From the IMG/VR virus record IMGVR_UViG_3300038360_000413: 14,838 nucleotides of DNA; one strand, given 5' to 3'. Position numbers and translations under genes: made by a program. The DNA comes from a virus. Its lineage: Duplodnaviria > Heunggongvirae > Uroviricota > Caudoviricetes. The notes beneath the pieces were generated by a model, which worked only from the letters and a program-made list of their open reading frames with translations, ran no database searches and was not told the DNA's origin. Shown here piece after piece: positions 5,026 to 14,837 of this stretch; position 1 is the first letter of the stretch, and each line of letters starts with the position of its first letter.

Positions 5026-6006
5026 TTAATTCTCCTCTAACTGAGCCTCTAAATAACAACCACGAGCTACTGCTGTAAGTGGTTCGTCCACGATTTTAAT
5101 TTCGCTTATTTCTAAAGGAAATTGTTTTGCCTGAAATTGATCTCTAAATACTTCTATAAAACCATTTATTGAAGCCGTGCCGCCGCCAATTATAATTGGT
5201 ATTGGTTTCGGAAAAGTAGGCATATTTGACGATTCAAATTGTTTTGCTAAATTAGCTAACAAATATCTAAATAATACTTCATAATATGTTTTTATAGCTT
5301 GTTGTTCTCTTGTACGCTCCTGCGTTGAGGCAGGATCTATTGTGTAATTTCCTGTTTCTTTTATATATTGAGCTTTCGCTTTAGTAATTCCACAATCTCT
5401 TGCCACGTTCTCATCAATCCAATCGCCTGATTTAGCTATGCTAAAAGTCAAAGCAGACATTCCAGCATATAAAATGGCAAAATTGACCATTCCTGCTCCC
5501 AATGAAATAGCAATTCCAGATAACTCTGAATTTTGTAAACCTACTAATCCTAAAGCTGTTGCTTCATTAATGGCTCTTGCAGAGTATCCTAAAGATTCTA
5601 TAATTTGCTTTAATACATCTTTATGATAGTCAATTTCTTGTGATTTATCAATAGGTTTTCCTGGGATACAATAAACAATGCGCTCGTTTTCTTGAGAAGC
5701 CGTTCCAACCAATCCGGAAATAATTTCTCGTAATATAGGGAAAGCATCTTGCTCAGTTGGATTTAATAATCCCTGTGCCATAGGTCGTTTTAGATCTTTA
5801 TTTCCAAAAACTTGTGCATACTCATAGGCTTTTTGTCCTATAATATGTAGTTTGTTATTAATTTCTATATAAGGCACATTAAGTGTTTTAAGTTGTCGAA
5901 GCGTTGTTACAGCTTTATCTATAGTTAAAAAAGCATTTCGTTGTAATGTAATATCTTGATTATTCACCGAAACAAAAAATCCAGTTCCACAGTCAATTGC
6001 TTTCAT
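5026..6006 (-). CDS. Actin-like ATPase (actin/MreB/FtsA/ParM/MamK superfamily), 326 aa
   Basis: Phosphate-1 AIDCGTGFF, connect-1 INEATA, phosphate-2 variant ISLGAGMVN, adenosine motif IIIGGGTA, connect-2 EPLTAVARG. Start placed at ATG 6006 (AAGGA upstream) instead of 6075. Confidence 0.85.
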   Translation of the reverse strand: MKAIDCGTGFFVSVNNQDITLQRNAFLTIDKAVTTLRQLKTLNVPYIEINNKLHIIGQKAYEYAQVFGNKDLKRPMAQGLLNPTEQDAFPILREIISGLVGTASQENERIVYCIPGKPIDKSQEIDYHKDVLKQIIESLGYSARAINEATALGLVGLQNSELSGIAISLGAGMVNFAILYAGMSALTFSIAKSGDWIDENVARDCGITKAKAQYIKETGNYTIDPASTQERTREQQAIKTYYEVLFRYLLANLAKQFESSNMPTFPKPIPIIIGGGTASINGFIEVFRDQFQAKQFPLEISEIKIVDEPLTAVARGCYLEAQLEEN

Positions 6007-6007
6007 T

Positions 6008-6088
6008 TTATAATGTCCATCCTTTATGTTGTTGATAATTTTTATTTTGTTTATTAGAAATTTTATAAATTCCACTTATTACTTTCAT
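6008..6088 (-). pseudogene. Collapsed GIY-YIG homing endonuclease remnant, 26 aa
   Basis: ATG overlaps the upstream stop (TAATG): MKVISGIYKISNKQNKNYQQHKGWTL-TAA. Looks like a GIY-YIG N-terminus joined to an HKGW-type C-terminal tail, with no YIG or catalytic core. Confidence 0.55.
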
Positions 6089-6327
6089 TAGAGATTTGAT
6101 TCTCCCACTTCGTAATCAAATGATATATTTTTGGAGCTAGAATTTTCAACAGGTATTTCATTCATTTGTTTTTTATTTGATTTGTTTGGTTCGCCAAGAG
6201 ATGTTGGAATGTTATTGTTTACAGTTATTGGACGTGAAAAATCCTTTTTCCAAAAGATATATAAAAAGACTATCTTACTAACTACAAACGTTGCAACATA
6301 TACAACTACTAACGTTTCCCAAAACAT
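6088..6327 (-). CDS. Small single-pass membrane protein, 79 aa
   Basis: N-terminal hydrophobic stretch LVVVYVATFVVSKIVFLYIFW followed by KK; TAATG coupling at both ends. Confidence 0.7.
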   Translation of the reverse strand: MFWETLVVVYVATFVVSKIVFLYIFWKKDFSRPITVNNNIPTSLGEPNKSNKKQMNEIPVENSSSKNISFDYEVGESNL

Positions 6328-7386: not shown

Positions 7387-7950
7387 CTATCTCCTATACT
7401 TAATTATAAAATTTTCTAATGCTGTTCCTGGGCAATTTTGTTTCCCAAATGAGGAGTGTCCGTAAATAGAAACACACTCCAAGTTTAATTTAGCACTATT
7501 TACTAAATGATTCAAGAGGTTTTCTAAAGCACGCAATTGTTTTTTAGCAGGTTTCTTGGCAGTACCAGTGTGGTTTGGTCCATTAAAATCACCAACTACC
7601 ATAATTCCAATAGAGGCTGTGTTCTGAGTTTTACAATGCCAAGTCACATCGCTAAGCATATTAGCCTGCCATACTTCGCCTTTTTTTGTAATACCATAGT
7701 GATAAGCAAACTTAGGAGCCCCGTTAGGAGAAAGATGATTGTTTGAGCCAGGAGTTATGTGGTAGTTGTTGACAGCCTCTATACTGCCATCACCCAATTC
7801 TTGATGAATAATAATTTTATTTATTTTAGATAAAGAACGCTTAGATCAGGTGCGAGTCGGATGAGCTGGTAACTCATTTATTTTGTTTATAATTTTAAAA
7901 GGAGAACCATGCTCTCCAAATGGATTAAATCTTCTAATTGTGTCAAACAT
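7387..7950 (-). CDS. N-acetylmuramoyl-L-alanine amidase (Amidase_2/PGRP-like) endolysin, 187 aa, TGA at codon 35
   Basis: Zn-amidase motifs IIIHQ, FAYHYGI, WHC..QNTASIGI, YGHS, NCPG. The first Zn-ligand His (IIIHQ) lies upstream of the track ORF start. The frame reaches ATG 7950 only through TGA 7846-48 (ELPAHPTRT[W]SKRSLSKINKIIIHQ). Confidence 0.88.
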
Positions 7951-7966
7951 TTGTTTTGTTGGTTTT

Positions 7967-8065
7967 TGGCAGGCATGGAAGGTACCGCCCCCTCATAGCG
8001 ATGAGTTGGAATCACCGCATCAGGATTTGAAGTCCTGTGCCATAGCTTCATGGCTATACACGCCT
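7967..8065 (-). tRNA. Non-canonical tRNA, anticodon UCA (opal decoder, probably Trp), 99 nt, CCA encoded
   Basis: Acceptor AGGCGTG/CATGCCT, then G73 and CCA. D-arm GCCATG-AAGC-TATGGC. Anticodon arm CAGGA-CTTCAAA-TCCTG (TCA at 8030-8028). 26-nt variable region with stem GCGGTGA/TCATCGC. T-arm GAGGG-GGCGGTA-CCTTC. All arms pair, and it occupies an otherwise empty intergenic gap. Confidence 0.85.
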
Positions 8066-8072
8066 ATTAATT

Positions 8073-8420
8073 TTAAATTCTTTTTGAGTGTTCGGCTATA
8101 CCTAATTTTCCAACATGCTTTCTACACCATTGCCAACATATGTCAATTAATGTGCGATGATGAGAGTTGCCGTACACGTCTTGACCTACATCACATACTA
8201 AGACTTTTGAATGTAGTTCTTTTGGAACGCGAGATCGGTATCTCTCTTCCATTATGATTATATGATCCGCCCAATTTCCTAACATAATAATTGTTTCTTT
8301 TGAATTACTATTAAGGCCTAGTGGTATTACGTCAACTGGCTCAAAATGTAATTTTAGCACATCTGCCAAAGCTACGCTGCGCACAAGTCCATGTTTACAA
8401 CAAGTAATTATTTTAGTCAT
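8073..8420 (-). CDS. Low-molecular-weight phosphatase-like protein (CX5R), 115 aa
   Basis: N-terminal P-loop C-KHGLV-R-S after a beta strand (IITC), WADHIIIME, and a C-terminal DVY resembling the LMW-PTP DPY acid loop. Confidence 0.7.
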   Translation of the reverse strand: MTKIITCCKHGLVRSVALADVLKLHFEPVDVIPLGLNSNSKETIIMLGNWADHIIIMEERYRSRVPKELHSKVLVCDVGQDVYGNSHHRTLIDICWQWCRKHVGKLGIAEHSKRI

Positions 8421-8429
8421 AAAAATATT

Positions 8430-8651
8430 TTATTTTATCTTACAACTTACTGATATAGGTTTATCGGTAAATAAACCATGTTTCTTCGCAAGTTTTAAAA
8501 GATGAGACTCAATAACAACTTTACCAATTTCTCTACTTGGAACAGGATTATCTAAAATATATGTAGTTTTATCAATATGATTATCGATTTGTATTGAAAA
8601 ATTATTTGATCCTGCAATTGGATCTACGTGTCCTTCAAAGAATTTATCCAT
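8430..8651 (-). CDS. Hypothetical protein, 73 aa
   Basis: ORF track; TAATG overlap with the holin stop; TAA end. Confidence 0.7.
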   Translation of the reverse strand: MDKFFEGHVDPIAGSNNFSIQIDNHIDKTTYILDNPVPSREIGKVVIESHLLKLAKKHGLFTDKPISVSCKIK

Positions 8652-9082
8652 TATTTACTAACTTTGGTTACTTTTTCATATGTACGTAATGTAGACATAC
8701 CAAGTAAAGCTAATACTAATTGAAACAAGCCATCCGCACTTATCGGAAAAGCTGCAACAGCTCCTGTTGCTAAACTAATCTTAGCCCAAAGATATGCTCC
8801 TACAATGTATTGAGGAATGAAATAAAAAGCCAAAGACGCTGCGCAAACCCAGCCGATTGCTGGACGCCAGCCTGCAACAAACCTGCTTTTATGTTGTGCT
8901 TCTAGCTTATTAATTTCTACTTGAAGTTCTGCAGGACGCTGCTTTAGTTTCTCTAAAACAGCGGCTCCTGCTAATTTTTCTTCTTTACTGGTAAGAACTT
9001 TATCTAAAACGTTTCCTATAGCATCTATAGGTTTAGCTAAAGTATCTCCACCGGCGCCGAATAATGTTGCCCAAATACTCAT
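8651..9082 (-). CDS. Holin of the GTA-holin/3TM (DUF3154) type, 143 aa
   Basis: EINKLEAQHKSRFVAGWRPAIGWVC...LFQLVLALLGMSTLRTYEK matches the family pattern I know; C-terminal hydrophobic helices; same operon as the amidase. Confidence 0.85.
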   Translation of the reverse strand: MSIWATLFGAGGDTLAKPIDAIGNVLDKVLTSKEEKLAGAAVLEKLKQRPAELQVEINKLEAQHKSRFVAGWRPAIGWVCAASLAFYFIPQYIVGAYLWAKISLATGAVAAFPISADGLFQLVLALLGMSTLRTYEKVTKVSK

Positions 9083-9084
9083 TG

Positions 9085-9333
9085 TTATTTATCCGTATCG
9101 GCCGGTATTTTTACTGGGGGCGCTTCTGGTGTTTCCTCGATCTTTTTTTCATCTGCAATTAGTTGTACTAACAAGTCCCTTTGCCCAGTAGCTTGATTGT
9201 GCTGTCTAGAAAGAATATTATAAGTTTCTTGCAGCTGTGTGATTTGATTTTGAACGTTACCAGCGTCTGCTTCTATTTTTGCGATTGCGGCGTTTACGTT
9301 AGTTAGTTTATCTTCTAAATTTAGTTTATTCAT
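9085..9333 (-). CDS. Small coiled-coil protein, 82 aa
   Basis: Heptad-like LEDKLTNVNAAIAKIEADAGNVQNQITQLQETY; first gene after the AT-rich intergenic region. Confidence 0.75.
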   Translation of the reverse strand: MNKLNLEDKLTNVNAAIAKIEADAGNVQNQITQLQETYNILSRQHNQATGQRDLLVQLIADEKKIEETPEAPPVKIPADTDK

Positions 9334-9361
9334 AATTTTTTAATATTTTGATTTAGTTAAG

Positions 9362-9404
9362 TGTTTAAAGTAAGGTTTAAAATTAAATATACTAACTTTA
9401 AACA
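9362..9404. repeat. 10-bp perfect inverted repeat, 23-nt spacer
   Basis: TGTTTAAAGT (9362-9371) and ACTTTAAACA (9395-9404) flank the putative -10 element. Confidence 0.5.
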
Positions 9405-9414
9405 TGAAAAGCAA
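9386..9414 (-). promoter_or_regulatory. Putative sigma70-like promoter upstream of the holin-tRNA-endolysin block
   Basis: TTGCTT (9414-9409), 17 nt, TATATT (9391-9386) in the longest true intergenic gap of the minus-strand operon (9334-9414). AT-rich context weakens specificity. Confidence 0.45.
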
Positions 9415-10299
9415 TTAAGAATTTGTGTTAAAATTATATTTAATTGTAACTTGTACATCGCCAGGAACATTAGTAGGATTCATAGTTATACTAATAGCGT
9501 CACCTTTTACAAATTCAGCGGATGAAAAAGTAAAATCGTACGTAGTTTTTATAACACTCAAGGTTGCTGTTGCTTTATGTGTCGAATCGCCTCCATAAAC
9601 AGAGTTGATATAGACTTTTAAATCTGTTTTTCCTGCTGCCGCGCCACCTCATATTTGTATTTGGGTTATTTTTCCATCCCATGGAGCAATTAAGCGGTGT
9701 TGATATGCCTCCCCAGCAGCTTCTACATTAGAGCCACATAAAGGAATATATACAACAGTAGACACGGCCGTAGTAAAAGCATGATTAGTAAAGTGGTCTA
9801 TTAATCCCTTAAAAGATTGTATACTGCCTCCGGTAAGATCTTTTTTTAACTCAATATCACTACCTGATACATCAAAGGCGGCATCTAGGTTTGTAATTAA
9901 CCCACTATGTGTTTCCAGCGCACCAACTAAGTTTTGACTTGTTCTATAAAAATCAGCAGCCGTATATATTCCAGAGCCTGTGGCATCTGGCACTACAATG
10001 ACAGCGCGAACTAACGGATCTATGGGTTGCATACCGCTCGCGGTTAGAGCCTGTACAGTAGTCCCGCTAATAGTAGCTGTTACGTATGGATTTATAAGCT
10101 CTAAACCATCTCTAAGGTTATCAACCTTGGTTTGTATATCACTTATAAAACTATCAAGAGTTACAGTAGTATTTAATAATTGATCTCTGAACGGAAGTCC
10201 AGATAGATAGTTAATACCGCTAATAGTTCCACTAATAGTAGCATTAGCACTAACGGCTTGGAATGTGTTAAGTTTTGTTAAATCTAAATATGCTATCAT
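9415..10299 (-). CDS. Probable virion structural protein, 294 aa, one in-frame TGA
   Basis: Track ORF continues through TGA 9649-51 (IAPWDGKITQIQI[W]GGAAAG...FVKGDAISI...VQVTIKY) to TAA 9415-17, giving a complete beta-rich C-terminal domain. Confidence 0.8.
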
Positions 10300-10301
10300 G
10301 A

Positions 10302-13300
10302 TTAAGTTGGTATTTTTCTAATAATTAAATTTTCTCCAGAACCACCACTAGTTGAAGGGAATCAGATATTTGCACCATCTCACACAGCGTTTCTGATTCC
10401 AGCGTAAGCACTTCCTACGGGAATACTGCCCTCCTCTACCGCTGTTTCTGTATTAAATATGGTTAAACTAGCACTAGACGCTAATGTTAAATAGGCTTTT
10501 CTTCCGGCAAATATCCCGCCAGTTACCTGCGTAGATACAAGCAATGATTGCCATTGAAATGGAACATCTCCAGATTGCTTAAAACGCGCTAATGTAGGGT
10601 TAGCTGATTGTGATGCTCCATAAAAACATCAGACATCTATACCATCATAAAAAATCGGTTTTATTCCTCACGCAGGAAGAGAGGTATCTCAGGACGCTCC
10701 GTCAATATTATATTTTGCCATTTTACGAAGTCCATTTCAAGTACCTTGTTCCGCTGTTCAAATATAAGTACCATCATATAATATACGATCTGTTCACATT
10801 ACCCCATCAAATCCAGCAATAGTAGCAGAGGAATCTCCTGCTATGCTATATTTCTCAAGAGCATTAGTGTCTCAAGTAGCTGCACCATCATTACACGATC
10901 AAATATTACTACCATCACATATTAACATAGAAGCGGCAACTGCTAGCGTATGAATGTGTGTATGTGTTGACATGTCGTCCGGGTCTACGCTAAACAAATA
11001 GCTTTCTTCGGTTTCGTCATCGATAATAGCCGTATAAAGCAGAGAGCCGTCTGTAGTAATTGAGTATAGTGCTGGGTAATCTGTAGTGGAAGCTCCAGGA
11101 ACTGTAATATCTTGAGAAGTAACTGTTTTAGTATGTACATTTATTTTATACATACGAGGAACAGACGATAATCCCAGTACATCTGTATATCCTCCACAGA
11201 TAAATAAGTCTGTTTTAAGAAAAACCATAGATATAGCATCAAAGGTATAATTAGCTGGGATTGTAATAGTTATGTCCTCTATTCCAGCAAATGTGTTGTT
11301 TCCTAAATTAAAAGAATAGTTATGTTCAGGGATACTGGCAATTCTACCTGTTAAATGGCCACCTTTAAAGTATCCTCTTCCAGTTTTTGCACCCGCATCA
11401 AATTGAGTAATATCATTATATGTGGCTACTAAGCCACTAGTAGTATTTAGTACAACTCTAACGTCTCCGTCACTTAATCCAATCTCATTACTATCTAAGT
11501 TAAAATAGGTAGTTCCGTCAGTTGATCTAAGATTTCCAATAACTACAGAATCTGCTGTTAATTCCCTGCTTACACGAAAGTCATCAATGTAACTTGTAGC
11601 AGCACTATCGGAGTATAGCTCAATCGCAATAAATCTTGTAGAAGATCCTAAGCTTCCAACAGCGCTTGGATGAGACCCCATAATAAAAGAATTTTTGTGC
11701 CAAGTATTGCCTACATGATTTACATAAGATACGGTAGTGTAGGAACTTAAATAATGTTTATCTGTATCAAATTCATGAACTCTAACTCTAAGATTGTTCG
11801 AACCAATACCTATAAAATGATAAAAACTAATAAAATAATTTTCTTCAGAAGTAACTGGTATAAAATGATTCGGATGTGTAGTAGCTAGTGTCCAACTGCT
11901 AGCTACTTTTAAACTATTATCTCCTGAGTGTGAAACTCCAGAATCATATTGTGAGGCATTTAATTCGACATAAGAACTTGGAGGTGCTCCAGTATTATAA
12001 TCAAATGTACTTAGCCAACTATAAACCACTCCACCATCTAAACTTAGAGTAGTACCCGCTTGTTCGAAATCAGAATTGCTAATTATATTATCATTTCCAG
12101 GCAATCCGAGAACTCCTTGAGTACCTGTATTTCCTGCAGGTCCACATATACCAGTTATTCCTTGTGGACCACAAGGTCCTGTTATTCCAGTTATTCCTTG
12201 TGGGCCGCACGGTCCAGTAATTCCTGGAGGACCACATGGACCTAATATTCCAGTTATTCCTTGTGGGCCACATGGTCCAGTAACTCCTGGAGGACCGCAT
12301 GGACCTAATATTCCAGTTATTCCTTGTGGGCCGCATGAGCCTTGTATACCTTGAGGACCGCATGATCCCAGTATTCCAGTTAATCCTTGAGGACCACATG
12401 AACCTTGTATACCTTGAGGACCACATGATCCTAGTATTCCAGTTATTCCTTGAGGACCGCAAGAACCTTCAGGGCCTTGAGGACCACATGGACCAGTTAT
12501 TCCTGTATTTCCTGGGGCACCTTTTTCACCTGTATTACCTATTGGACCACAAACACCTGTAGCGCCGGCTAATCCTTTTGGACCGCACGAACCTGTAATA
12601 CCTTGAGGACCACATGGACCTAATATTCCGGTTACTCCTTGGGGACCACATGAACCTTGTATACCTTGAGGACCGCATGAACCAATTATTCCAGTTATTC
12701 CTTGCGGACCGCACGGTCCAGTAACTCCTGGAGGTCCACATGAGCCCAGTATTCCGGTTAATCCTTGTGGGCCACATGGTCCAGTAACTCCTGGAGGTCC
12801 ACATGAGCCTAATATTCCGGTTACTCCTTGGGGACCACATGAGCCTTGTGAACCTTGAGGACCGCATGAACCAATTATTCCAGTTATTCCTTGCGGGCCG
12901 CACGGTCCAGTAACTCCTGGAGGTCCACATGAGCCTAGTATTCCGGTTAATCCTTGTGGGCCGCATGGTCCAGTAACTCCTGGAGGACCGCATGATCCTA
13001 GTATTCCAGTTAATCCTTGTGGGCCGCATGAGCCTTGTATACCTTGAGGACCGCATGAACCAATTATTCCAGTTATTCCTTGTGGGCCGCATGGTCCAGT
13101 AACTCCTGGAGGTCCACATGAGCCCAGTATTCCGGTTAATCCTTGTGGGCCACAAGGTCCAGTAACTCCTGGAGGTCCACATGAGCCTAATATTCCGGTT
13201 AATCCTTGTGGGCCACATGAGCCTTGTATACCTTGAGGACCACAGGCACCTTTTATTCCTGTATTTCCTTGAATACCTTTTTCACCTGTATATCCTATTG

Positions 13301-14837
13301 GGCCACATAAACCGATTATTCCAGTTAATCCTTGAGGGCCACACGGTCCGGTAACTCCTGGAGGACCACATGGACCTAATATTCCAGTTATTCCTTGTGG
13401 GCCACATGGTCCAGTAACTCCTGGAGGACCGCATGGACCTAATATTCCAGTTATTCCTTGTGGGCCGCAAGAACCTTCAGGGCCTTGAGGACCACATGAA
13501 CCGAGTATTCCAGTTACTCCCTGAGGACCACATGAACCTTGTATACCTTGAGGACCGCATGATCCTAGTATTCCAGTTACTCCTTGAGGACCACATGAAC
13601 CGACTAAACCAGTTGATCCAGTTGGGCCTGTAGGACCTTGGGGACCTTGATCACCTTGTACACCTTTTGGACCGCCAGGTCTAATAGTTAAAGTTTCAGT
13701 AACATCTATTGGAGCATAAGCTACTAAAGTTCATGCATAAAAGTGACATATTTCAGAACTATCTGGTGTTATGTCCACATCGATGTCAGTTCAATTGGTA
13801 CCGCTTATACCTGTACTAAGTTCAACAGAACCCTTTCCAGTAACATCAGCTACAGGAGTTCCACTATCTAATGTATAAGTAAATTTAGCTCCAGCAACCA
13901 TATCATGAACTAAACTATGTGTATTGGTAATGGCATTATATAACATGAACATGACACTATGCCCAGTACTAGGGCCGACTGGTACAAGAGGATCATTATC
14001 TATTATATATTGTGCTGCAGTTTCTCCAGTGTTAACTCCATACATTACTCATAAAATTGGATCACCACCGTTATCTTGTACTAAAGAATATGAAAAACTA
14101 TGAGGTCCGATTGCTCCTGTTATTCCGGCAGGGCCTATCTCGCCGTCTGGACCTGTAGAGCCTTGATTACCTATGCTTCCCGTAAACCCTTGAGGCCCAC
14201 AAATACCTGTTATACCTTGAGGACCGCATGATCCTAATTCTCCGGTAAATCCTTGAGGACCACAAACACCTGTTATTCCCATTGGACCACATGATCCTAA
14301 CTCTCCAGTAAATCCTTGAGGACCACAAACACCGGTCAAGCCCATTGGACCGCATGATCCTTGTTCTCCGGTAAATCCATAAACACCTTTTTCACCTGTA
14401 TTACCTATTGGACCGCATGATCCTAACTCTCCGGTAAATCCTTGAGGACCACAAAGTCCTGTTATACCTTGAGGACCACATGATCCTAACTCTCCGGTAA
14501 ATCCTTGAGGACCACAAAGTCCTGTTATACCTTGAGGACCACATGATCCTAATTCTCCGGTAAATCCTTGAGGACCACAAACACCTGTTATTCCCATTGG
14601 ACCGCATGATCCTAACTCTCCGGTAAATCCTTGAGGACCGCAAAGTCCTGTTATACCTTGAGGACCGCATGATCCTAACTCTCCAGTAAATCCTTGAGGA
14701 CCGCAAAGTCCTGTTATACCTTGAGGACCACATGATCCTAACTCTCCAGTAAATCCTTGAGGACCGCAAAGTCCTGTTATACCTTGAGGACCGCATGATC
14801 CTAATTCTCCTGTAAATCCTTGAGGACCACATACACC
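10302..14837 (-). CDS. Giant collagen-containing tail-fibre/receptor-binding-like protein, >=1511 aa, 5'-partial, 13 in-frame TGA
   Basis: One frame with no TAA/TAG from 14837 to TAA 10302-04; track ORFs 14049..14597, 13791..14045 and 10899..12104 are all in this frame. Order: collagen 1, ~142-aa globular domain, collagen 2, CBM4/9-like domain (NSDFE...HSGDNSLKV...YIDDFRV), linker, beta-propeller with CDGSNIW, YDGTYIW, YDGIDVW, WDGANIW. Next gene starts 2 nt after the TAA. Confidence 0.85.
12096..13673 (-). repeat. Collagen domain 2: about 175 Gly-X-Y triplets built from 18/27-nt units ([18 protein letters not shown])
   Basis: Gly register is identical at both ends (mod 9) and there are no stops in frame; about 45 Cys by manual count. 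Confidence 0.92.
14100..14837 (-). repeat. Collagen domain 1 (partial): >=82 Gly-X-Y triplets, 63-nt tandem unit [21 protein letters not shown]
   Basis: Near-identical 63-nt copies are visible at about 14410-14838; about 20 Cys. Confidence 0.92.

Follow-up and report, generated by a model that had tools for sequence, protein, structure and literature searches.

A Trp-type opal suppressor tRNA next to a TGA-bearing endolysin gene probably acts as the general UGA decoder of a marine giant phage

The stretch of DNA analysed here (the window, 14,838 nucleotides (nt) in length) corresponds to bases 69387-84224, read on the reverse strand, of a 210,263-bp virus record from IMG/VR (IMGVR_UViG_3300038360_000413, hereafter G000), which is estimated to be 99% complete. 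Within a lysis cassette on the minus strand of the window lies a tRNA gene with anticodon UCA (positions 7967-8065), directly ahead of an Amidase_2 endolysin gene that is interrupted by one in-frame TGA. An initial annotation had viewed this pair as a compact switch in which the tRNA must accumulate before endolysin is made. The interpretation that we favor, and consider probable, is that the tRNA is the only UGA decoder of the whole genome, housed in the lysis operon, and that its position beside the amidase gene stems from a single insertion retained by synteny rather than from a private switch. The window DNA is also present in many seawater metagenomes, and its source is probably a marine giant phage with a host among the Bacteroidota.

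Open reading frames (ORFs) of at least 100 amino acids cover 73% of the genome under genetic code table 11 and 88% when TGA is read through. The in-frame TGAs are not spread evenly over the genome but are grouped in late-gene blocks. The structural block on the plus strand of G000 (42.1-74.8 kb) comprises 18 ORFs with 72 TGA and 48 TGG codons, making TGA 60% of Trp codons, and individual structural genes upstream of the cassette hold 5-15 TGAs each; by contrast, 19 TGA against 249 TGG codons were counted in 84 minus-strand ORFs located at 84-178 kb. Around 50 further ORFs beside the amidase gene carry TGA, that of the phage RNA polymerase among them, and well over 100 in-frame TGAs in the genome would need efficient decoding. 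Cellular homologues of the amidase come nearly all from the Bacteroidota, mainly from the Cytophagales and Bacteroidales, and Bacteroidota use the standard genetic code. Because TGA is rare in the ORFs of the 84-178-kb region and common in the structural block, and because the homologues of the amidase are Bacteroidotal, the host very probably reads TGA as stop and not as Trp. Efficient decoding of TGA as Trp by the host, which the initial annotation had named as one outcome that would undo its proposal, is therefore very probably absent.

The endolysin gene (7387-7950, minus strand) encodes 187 amino acids when TGA is read as Trp, and the product belongs with the Amidase_2/PGRP-type endolysins by its matches to PF01510 (64 bits against a cut-off of 26; 2e-17) and to the endolysin family phrog_1493 (3e-21). 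Its single TGA, at codon 35 (7846-7848, minus strand), falls on a position at which Trp is unchanged across 12 homologues. H49, H165, and C173, which from knowledge of the Amidase_2 family we take to be the Zn ligands, are also invariant in this alignment and all lie downstream of codon 35, in agreement with the initial annotation. Conserved residues run from I20 to R33 upstream of the TGA (I20 to W35 if the site itself is counted), and the sole table 11 start codon after it, a TTG at 7797, would give a product of 136 amino acids from which H49 is lost; a start downstream of the TGA, the second outcome held to speak against the switch, was thus not borne out. Because conserved residues precede the TGA and the first Zn ligand precedes any later start, production of the amidase is predicted from sequence to require UGA decoding. 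In the amidase of a related phage, L019, three of five TGAs fall in motifs that have TGG in relatives, namely LPWH, the invariant W35 site, and VTWH. It is from these positions, together with the invariance of W35 in the 12 homologues, that TGA is shown by comparison to stand for Trp in this phage. TGA at conserved Trp positions, a bias toward late genes, a host with the standard code, and a suppressor tRNA, the features of code-4 recoded phages, are all found here.

No other tRNA with a UCA anticodon was found in the 210-kb genome: ARAGORN lists 26 tRNAs and one tmRNA, none of them UCA, and in a genome scan for UCA anticodon hairpins the window tRNA was the only tRNA-like site. As it is the only UCA tRNA of the genome, and would also serve some 50 other TGA-bearing ORFs, the tRNA does not work for the endolysin alone. 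We infer its function from necessity.

The tRNA is 99 nt long and, according to its predicted fold and a covariance model described below (R1), is an opal suppressor of Trp type with five arms and an encoded CCA. In the minimum-energy fold, AGGCGUG pairs with CAUGCCU to give a perfect 7-bp acceptor stem with A1-U72 as its first pair, and this is followed by G73 and CCA. A1-U72 and the discriminator G73 are identity marks of bacterial tRNA-Trp, and both are present. The D arm is folded as a 6-bp stem with a 4-nt loop, AAGC, lacking GG. Sequence, Rfam, and fold agree on the anticodon UCA (8028-8030, minus strand) in the loop CUUCAAA. The anticodon of tRNA-Trp, CCA, is absent from this arm and appears instead in the 7-nt loop of a long extra (variable) arm (7998-8018, minus strand), in which a 7-bp stem carries the loop UUCCAAC, with CCA at 8009-8007, and so mimics a Trp anticodon loop (U-CCA-A). 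The T arm (7978-7994, minus strand) has an aberrant loop, GGCGGUA, where relatives have UUCRANU on the same GAGGG/CCUUC stem. Because of this T-loop and the unusual D arm, the tRNA went undetected by ARAGORN, for which relaxed, intron, or mitochondrial settings gave only implausible folds. The match to Rfam RF00005 (cut-off 29 bits) reached 30.5 bits but was confined to model positions 8-63, with the extra arm taken for the T arm. Standard tRNA finders can therefore miss a decisive suppressor.

Homologous tRNAs were found in six related phages, which were identified through their amidases, and ARAGORN labels these tRNAs tRNA-SeC(tca). In an alignment of the seven tRNAs, 15 of the 25 predicted pairs have compensatory changes. 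Model R1, the covariance model built from the alignment of the relatives' tRNAs, gives the window tRNA 76 bits (E = 2e-17), a score as high as those of the L006 and L020 tRNAs. UCCAA occurs in the extra-arm loop of all seven tRNAs found through the amidase, and in that of 34 of 35 long-arm tRNAs recovered from viral contigs by a scan in which the motif was no criterion. Across 67 distinct members of the family there are 53 different extra-arm stems, the discriminator is G in all but one, and the extra-arm loops are mostly GUCCAAA, CUCCAAA, or UUCCAAC, the pattern of a Trp anticodon loop. The window tRNA likewise combines a UCA anticodon arm with an extra arm whose stem covaries and whose loop is N-U-CCA-A-N. 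The genes that R1 matches best in non-recoded relatives are ordinary tRNA-Trp(CCA) genes. From the conserved UCCAA loop, the variable stems, and tRNA-Trp(CCA) as the nearest ordinary tRNAs, it follows that the tRNA is, as judged by comparison, a Trp-derived opal suppressor in which a spare CCA hairpin replaces the variable loop, and that of the window would be a diverged member of this two-anticodon-arm design. No published description of such a design was found in the literature.

The tRNA sits directly 5' of the amidase gene in seven lineages (the window, L005, the L006 group, the L012 group, L016, L019, and L020), although the amidases of the others are only 49-56% identical to that of the window by BLASTP. 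The upstream ORF ends a few bases before the tRNA, 7 nt in the window and 3-7 nt in L005 and L006. In the window, the spacer between tRNA and amidase gene (7951-7966, minus strand) is 16 nt long, A/C-rich, and without a Shine-Dalgarno sequence, as the initial annotation had it, but 64% of the ORFs of at least 100 amino acids in this phage likewise lack the Shine-Dalgarno core; spacers in relatives measure 10-34 nt. The order of the amidase, p351, and volactin genes is also conserved in relatives without the tRNA, and in the non-recoded relatives with this gene order the tRNA was found neither at the junction nor elsewhere in the genome. A check on the synteny of tRNA and amidase, which the initial annotation had suggested, therefore came out in favor of linkage within the recoded lineages. 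Its companion, a check on conservation of the TGA at codon 35, gave a mixed answer: the site is TGA in the window, L012, L016, L019, and L020 (five of seven lineages) and TGG in L005 and L006. L005 and the L006 group retain the tRNA beside an amidase gene that has no TGA. Among the seven lineages, the amidases L005:2929-3531 and L019:2914-3522 are sisters (bootstrap 99) with the suppressor tRNA directly upstream of both, yet TGA accounts for none of four Trp codons in the former and all five in the latter. Trp codon choice thus flips fast between close relatives.

A plausible course of events can be set out for the general decoder. One insertion at the junction of p73 and the amidase gene, before the recoded subclade diversified, would have placed the tRNA there, and it would have stayed because gene order in these genomes is strongly conserved. 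The tight gaps on both sides of the tRNA (7 and 16 nt in the window) suggest, together with the lack in all seven lineages of any promoter consensus above chance within the 110 nt upstream of it, that the tRNA originates from the cassette transcript, from which RNase P and 3' processing would release it. As in known transcripts that join tRNA and mRNA, excision would part the mRNA of the holin-side genes from that of the amidase, whose leader would be very short, and it is plausible, as had been proposed, that tRNA processing sets the 5' end of that mRNA. As a weak sign of expression, RNA contigs of three metatranscriptome libraries are 100% identical to parts of the cassette, with DNA carry-over possible; they are short (parts of 8321-8783, 9461-10302, and 6139-6313), leave the tRNA and the amidase gene uncovered, and cannot show RNA ends. 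The tRNA would be charged by the TrpRS of the host, perhaps helped by the CCA hairpin, and neither TrpRS (PF00579) nor RF1 (PF00472) gave a match anywhere in the 210-kb genome. Once charged, it would permit translation of every TGA-bearing gene, and any feed-forward effect on the lysin would be a side benefit.

Against this account stand three observations. The T-loop GGCGGUA and the D-loop without GG set the window tRNA apart from those of all its relatives. The RNA polymerase gene has a single in-frame TGA (G000:C1:94675, codon 794 of the fused ORF 92296-99360), situated in an intein-like N-terminal block, and with it the phage polymerase too would depend on UGA decoding, which complicates the first expression of the tRNA. 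Last, selection for gating, instead of drift, could account for the TGA loading of the amidase in five of seven lineages, which reaches five of five Trp codons in L019.

The last of these points leads to the alternative that tRNA and TGA-bearing endolysin are a selected, compact, coherent feed-forward switch, in which a single transcript would yield both and the lysin is made only after stable tRNA has accumulated, so that lysis is delayed or sharpened and leakage curbed. We regard this as unlikely, although part of what the initial annotation proposed does stand, because the amidase needs UGA decoding and tRNA and amidase gene stay adjacent, a mere 10-34 nt apart, in seven lineages. The TGA falls on the same invariant Trp in five of these, and in L019 and L020 every amidase Trp codon is TGA while the immediate neighbor genes have few. 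Borges et al. propose control of lysis by recoding, and a synthetic feed-forward loop built on a suppressor tRNA is reported to lower leaky expression (PMC7969014). What speaks against the switch is chiefly that the tRNA serves the whole genome. Moreover, the holin, the normal timer of lysis, has no TGA, and TGA makes up a smaller share of Trp codons in the lysis cassette (1 of 10) than in the structural block (72 of 120; Fisher p = 0.005). One TGA gates less than the 5-15 of the structural genes, and by its sequence the amidase would be the most weakly gated of the TGA-bearing late genes. Sister lineages L005 and L019 differ completely in amidase TGA content, and L005 and the L006 group hold on to the tRNA next to a TGA-free amidase. 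The closest homologue of the window amidase, P0003 (73% identity by BLASTP, 71% in the alignment), is called as a full-length protein of 191 amino acids with W at the codon 35 site, which suggests TGG there; its contig has a gap of 121 nt upstream of the amidase gene, the same size as that of the window, and this gap may hold a tRNA. Finally, in the wider tRNA family lysins are only 6 of 64 distinct downstream neighbors. Dependence of the lysin on the tRNA thus appears from these comparisons to be real but weak and evolutionarily labile. A related idea can be put forward only tentatively, namely that the tRNA was selected to sit between the holin-side genes and the endolysin, its excision splitting the lysis transcript, so that the lysin has a leader of 10-34 nt and its own stability, and at the same time supplying the decoder, with charging by the host TrpRS via the decoy CCA hairpin; the arrangement would then be a natural, tRNA-based gate of the feed-forward type.

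Two further alternatives concern the tRNA itself. It could be a decayed, non-functional copy, with UGA read by a near-cognate tRNA-Trp(CCA) or by an odd tRNA such as the CUUCCAAA element at G000 130460-130524. Failure of detection by ARAGORN, a T-loop of GGCGGUA in place of UUCRANU, a D-loop without GG, and several degenerate tRNA-like elements in the tRNA cluster of the genome would all fit with decay. All stems are intact, however, the 7 bp of the acceptor are perfectly paired and followed by G73 and CCA, conservation extends to both the anticodon loop and the CCA-bearing loop of the extra arm, and the R1 score is as high as those of the L006 and L020 tRNAs. Independent contigs, and seawater runs with filing dates of 2018 and 2020, contain exactly this sequence, the partners T-loop and D-loop have changed jointly, as coherent remodelling would look, and well over 100 in-frame TGAs demand efficient decoding; decay is accordingly considered quite improbable. 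It is still harder to credit that a Sec/Ser-like body (long extra arm, G73, and 6-bp D stem) leads to charging by SerRS, with UGA read as Ser or Sec. The ARAGORN label tRNA-SeC for the relatives points that way, as do the long extra arm and G73, which are Ser/Sec determinants (PMC5389517). Nevertheless, the TGAs occur at invariant Trp positions, and the acceptor/T arrangement is 7/5 and not 8/5. A1-U72 is a mark of bacterial tRNA-Trp, the extra arm has in its loop a conserved copy of the Trp anticodon rather than free sequence, and the ordinary tRNAs nearest to the model are tRNA-Trp(CCA). The Ser/Sec reading is accordingly regarded as highly improbable, and the general UGA decoder of Trp type remains the interpretation that we prefer.

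Recoded lysis genes, and a suppressor module at the lysis cassette, have already been published by Borges et al. (bioRxiv 10.1101/2021.08.26.457843), who proposed that recoding times late and lytic expression and who detected suppressors in only ~35% of TGA-recoded phages. With the code-4 phages of that study, and the Jade phages in which a code change module adjoins the lysis cassette, the window phage shares a standard-code host, TGA located mainly in structural and lysis modules, a phage-encoded suppressor tRNA at the lysis cassette, and lysis genes with recoded stops. The Jade module consists of suppressor tRNA, TrpRS, and RF1 and lies upstream of the cassette, whereas the window phage lacks TrpRS and RF1 and has its tRNA within the cassette, with the holin-side genes before it and the lysin gene after it; the window tRNA also has a second, CCA-bearing arm. 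The Borges phages are from the gut and enriched in TGA at the lysis genes, whereas the window phage is marine and giant, with a host probably among the Bacteroidota, and its cassette is TGA-poor. This case is set apart by a tRNA within the operon directly before the lysin, the lack of TrpRS and RF1, the marine and probably Bacteroidota setting, the two anticodon-like arms, and the degenerate T-loop.

The synthetic leak dampener (PMC7969014) drives a suppressor tRNA and a stop-bearing target together such that output needs both, and the window pair would work likewise if it gates. That system was engineered in Escherichia coli with one target, whereas the window tRNA serves some 50 genes and may be co-transcribed with the lysis cassette. 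Among natural tRNAs, tRNA-Sec (selC) and the allo-tRNAs and irregular phage tRNAs described by Mukai et al. (PMC5389517) share the UCA anticodon, the long extra arm, and G73 with the window tRNA, to which its 6-bp D stem with a 4-nt loop can be added as tRNA-Sec-like. It differs from them in an acceptor/T arrangement of 7/5, not 8/5, 8/4, or 9/3, in A1-U72, and in an extra-arm loop that is conserved in sequence. The 13-bp acceptor/T branch of tRNA-Sec is absent, and UGA is found at an invariant Trp rather than at Sec or Cys positions. The locus provides a conserved natural case in which the published idea of timing late and lytic expression by code switching can be tested, and the comparative data warn against taking each in-frame stop in a lysin gene as a dedicated timer.

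The gene order on the minus strand of the window is p82, holin, p73, a protein of 115 amino acids with a CX5R motif, tRNA(UCA), the 16-nt spacer, and the Amidase_2 endolysin. This layout had been given by the initial annotation and holds on the evidence of the ORFs, PF11351/phrog_3427, PF01510, the fold, and model R1, apart from a promoter and a phosphatase label. A recount of the four genes before the tRNA likewise gave 0 TGA and 7 TGG, as first reported. The supposed promoter falls in an 81-nt intergenic region ahead of the cassette (9334-9414, minus strand), the largest gap in the gene block, where neither a sigma-70-like site nor one of the Bacteroidota type (TTTG/TAnnTTTG) was found on the minus strand of 9414-9334; the phage RNA polymerase may use other promoters. 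The first gene, p82 (9085-9333, minus strand), encodes a coiled-coil protein of 82 amino acids with a weak coiled-coil Pfam match and has 0 TGA and 0 TGG; similar short coiled-coil ORFs are found at the start of the cassette in relatives. It is followed by the holin gene (8651-9082, minus strand; 143 amino acids, 0 TGA, 4 TGG), whose product belongs to the holins by PF11351 (GTA_holin_3TM, 44.9 bits against a cut-off of 24.8; 2e-11) and phrog_3427 (holin, 1e-26).

The product of p73 (8430-8651, minus strand; 73 amino acids, 0 TGA, 0 TGG) has BLASTP matches in L005, L006, L012, L016, L019, and L020, and the gene is conserved just upstream of the tRNA. The homologue stops 3-7 nt before the tRNA in L005 and L006, and the called ORF overlaps the tRNA in L012, L016, and L020; in L019, the matched ORF stops ~375 nt upstream. 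Next to it in the window lies the gene of the 115-amino acid protein (8073-8420, minus strand; 0 TGA, 3 TGG), in which the phosphatase label rests on a CX5R-S motif and a weak lead from Atlas to LMWPc (low-molecular-weight phosphatase; rank 12, score 0.90). No Pfam, PHROG, or PDB match was found for this protein, and a single-sequence AlphaFold model was poor (pLDDT 43). BLASTP gave no match in any relative compared, and by its distribution the gene seems to have been inserted between p73 and the tRNA in this phage only.

No close relative of the window phage, by DNA or by exact peptide, was found in the phage collection or among viral contigs. Nor was any found by a peptide scan of metagenomes together with a tRNA-pattern scan, in which 23 pattern matches were due to chance and none was scored by model R1 as this tRNA. 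Upstream of the cassette, the TGA-rich structural block ends with a large tail-like protein (10302-14837, minus strand; 13 TGAs in the window and 14 in the full gene). At 10081-11379, a stretch that takes in the C-terminal part of this protein and the beginning of p294 shares 98.9% DNA identity with L006:1-1299, which belongs to another large phage, whereas the neighbors of that stretch in the L006 phage are only 50-75% identical to those of the window or undetectable by blastn. These identities suggest recombination in the recent past, possibly involving a host-recognition module. The gene at 5026-6075 (minus strand) encodes an actin-like protein assigned to Volactin (PF25216, 1.6e-65), which recurs three genes past the amidase, with 52-75% identity, in all relatives, recoded or not.

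Other tRNAs of note lie outside the window on the minus strand of G000. A canonical-looking tRNA with anticodon CUA (an amber suppressor) is located at G000:C1:115365-115439. Recoding of TAG was rejected despite this tRNA, as only 4 of 45 TAG-ended ORFs gain at least 60 codons on readthrough. A tRNA-like sequence at G000:C1:110898-111046 carries CUUUAAA as its anticodon-loop motif; the anticodon, UUA, would read UAA. Some 75 nt are inserted after the motif, and no clean acceptor stem is formed. The element at G000:C1:130460-130524, which was missed by ARAGORN, has an 8-nt anticodon loop, CUUCCAAA, with a discriminator G and an encoded CCA, and it could be a Trp-like or a four-base-decoding tRNA.

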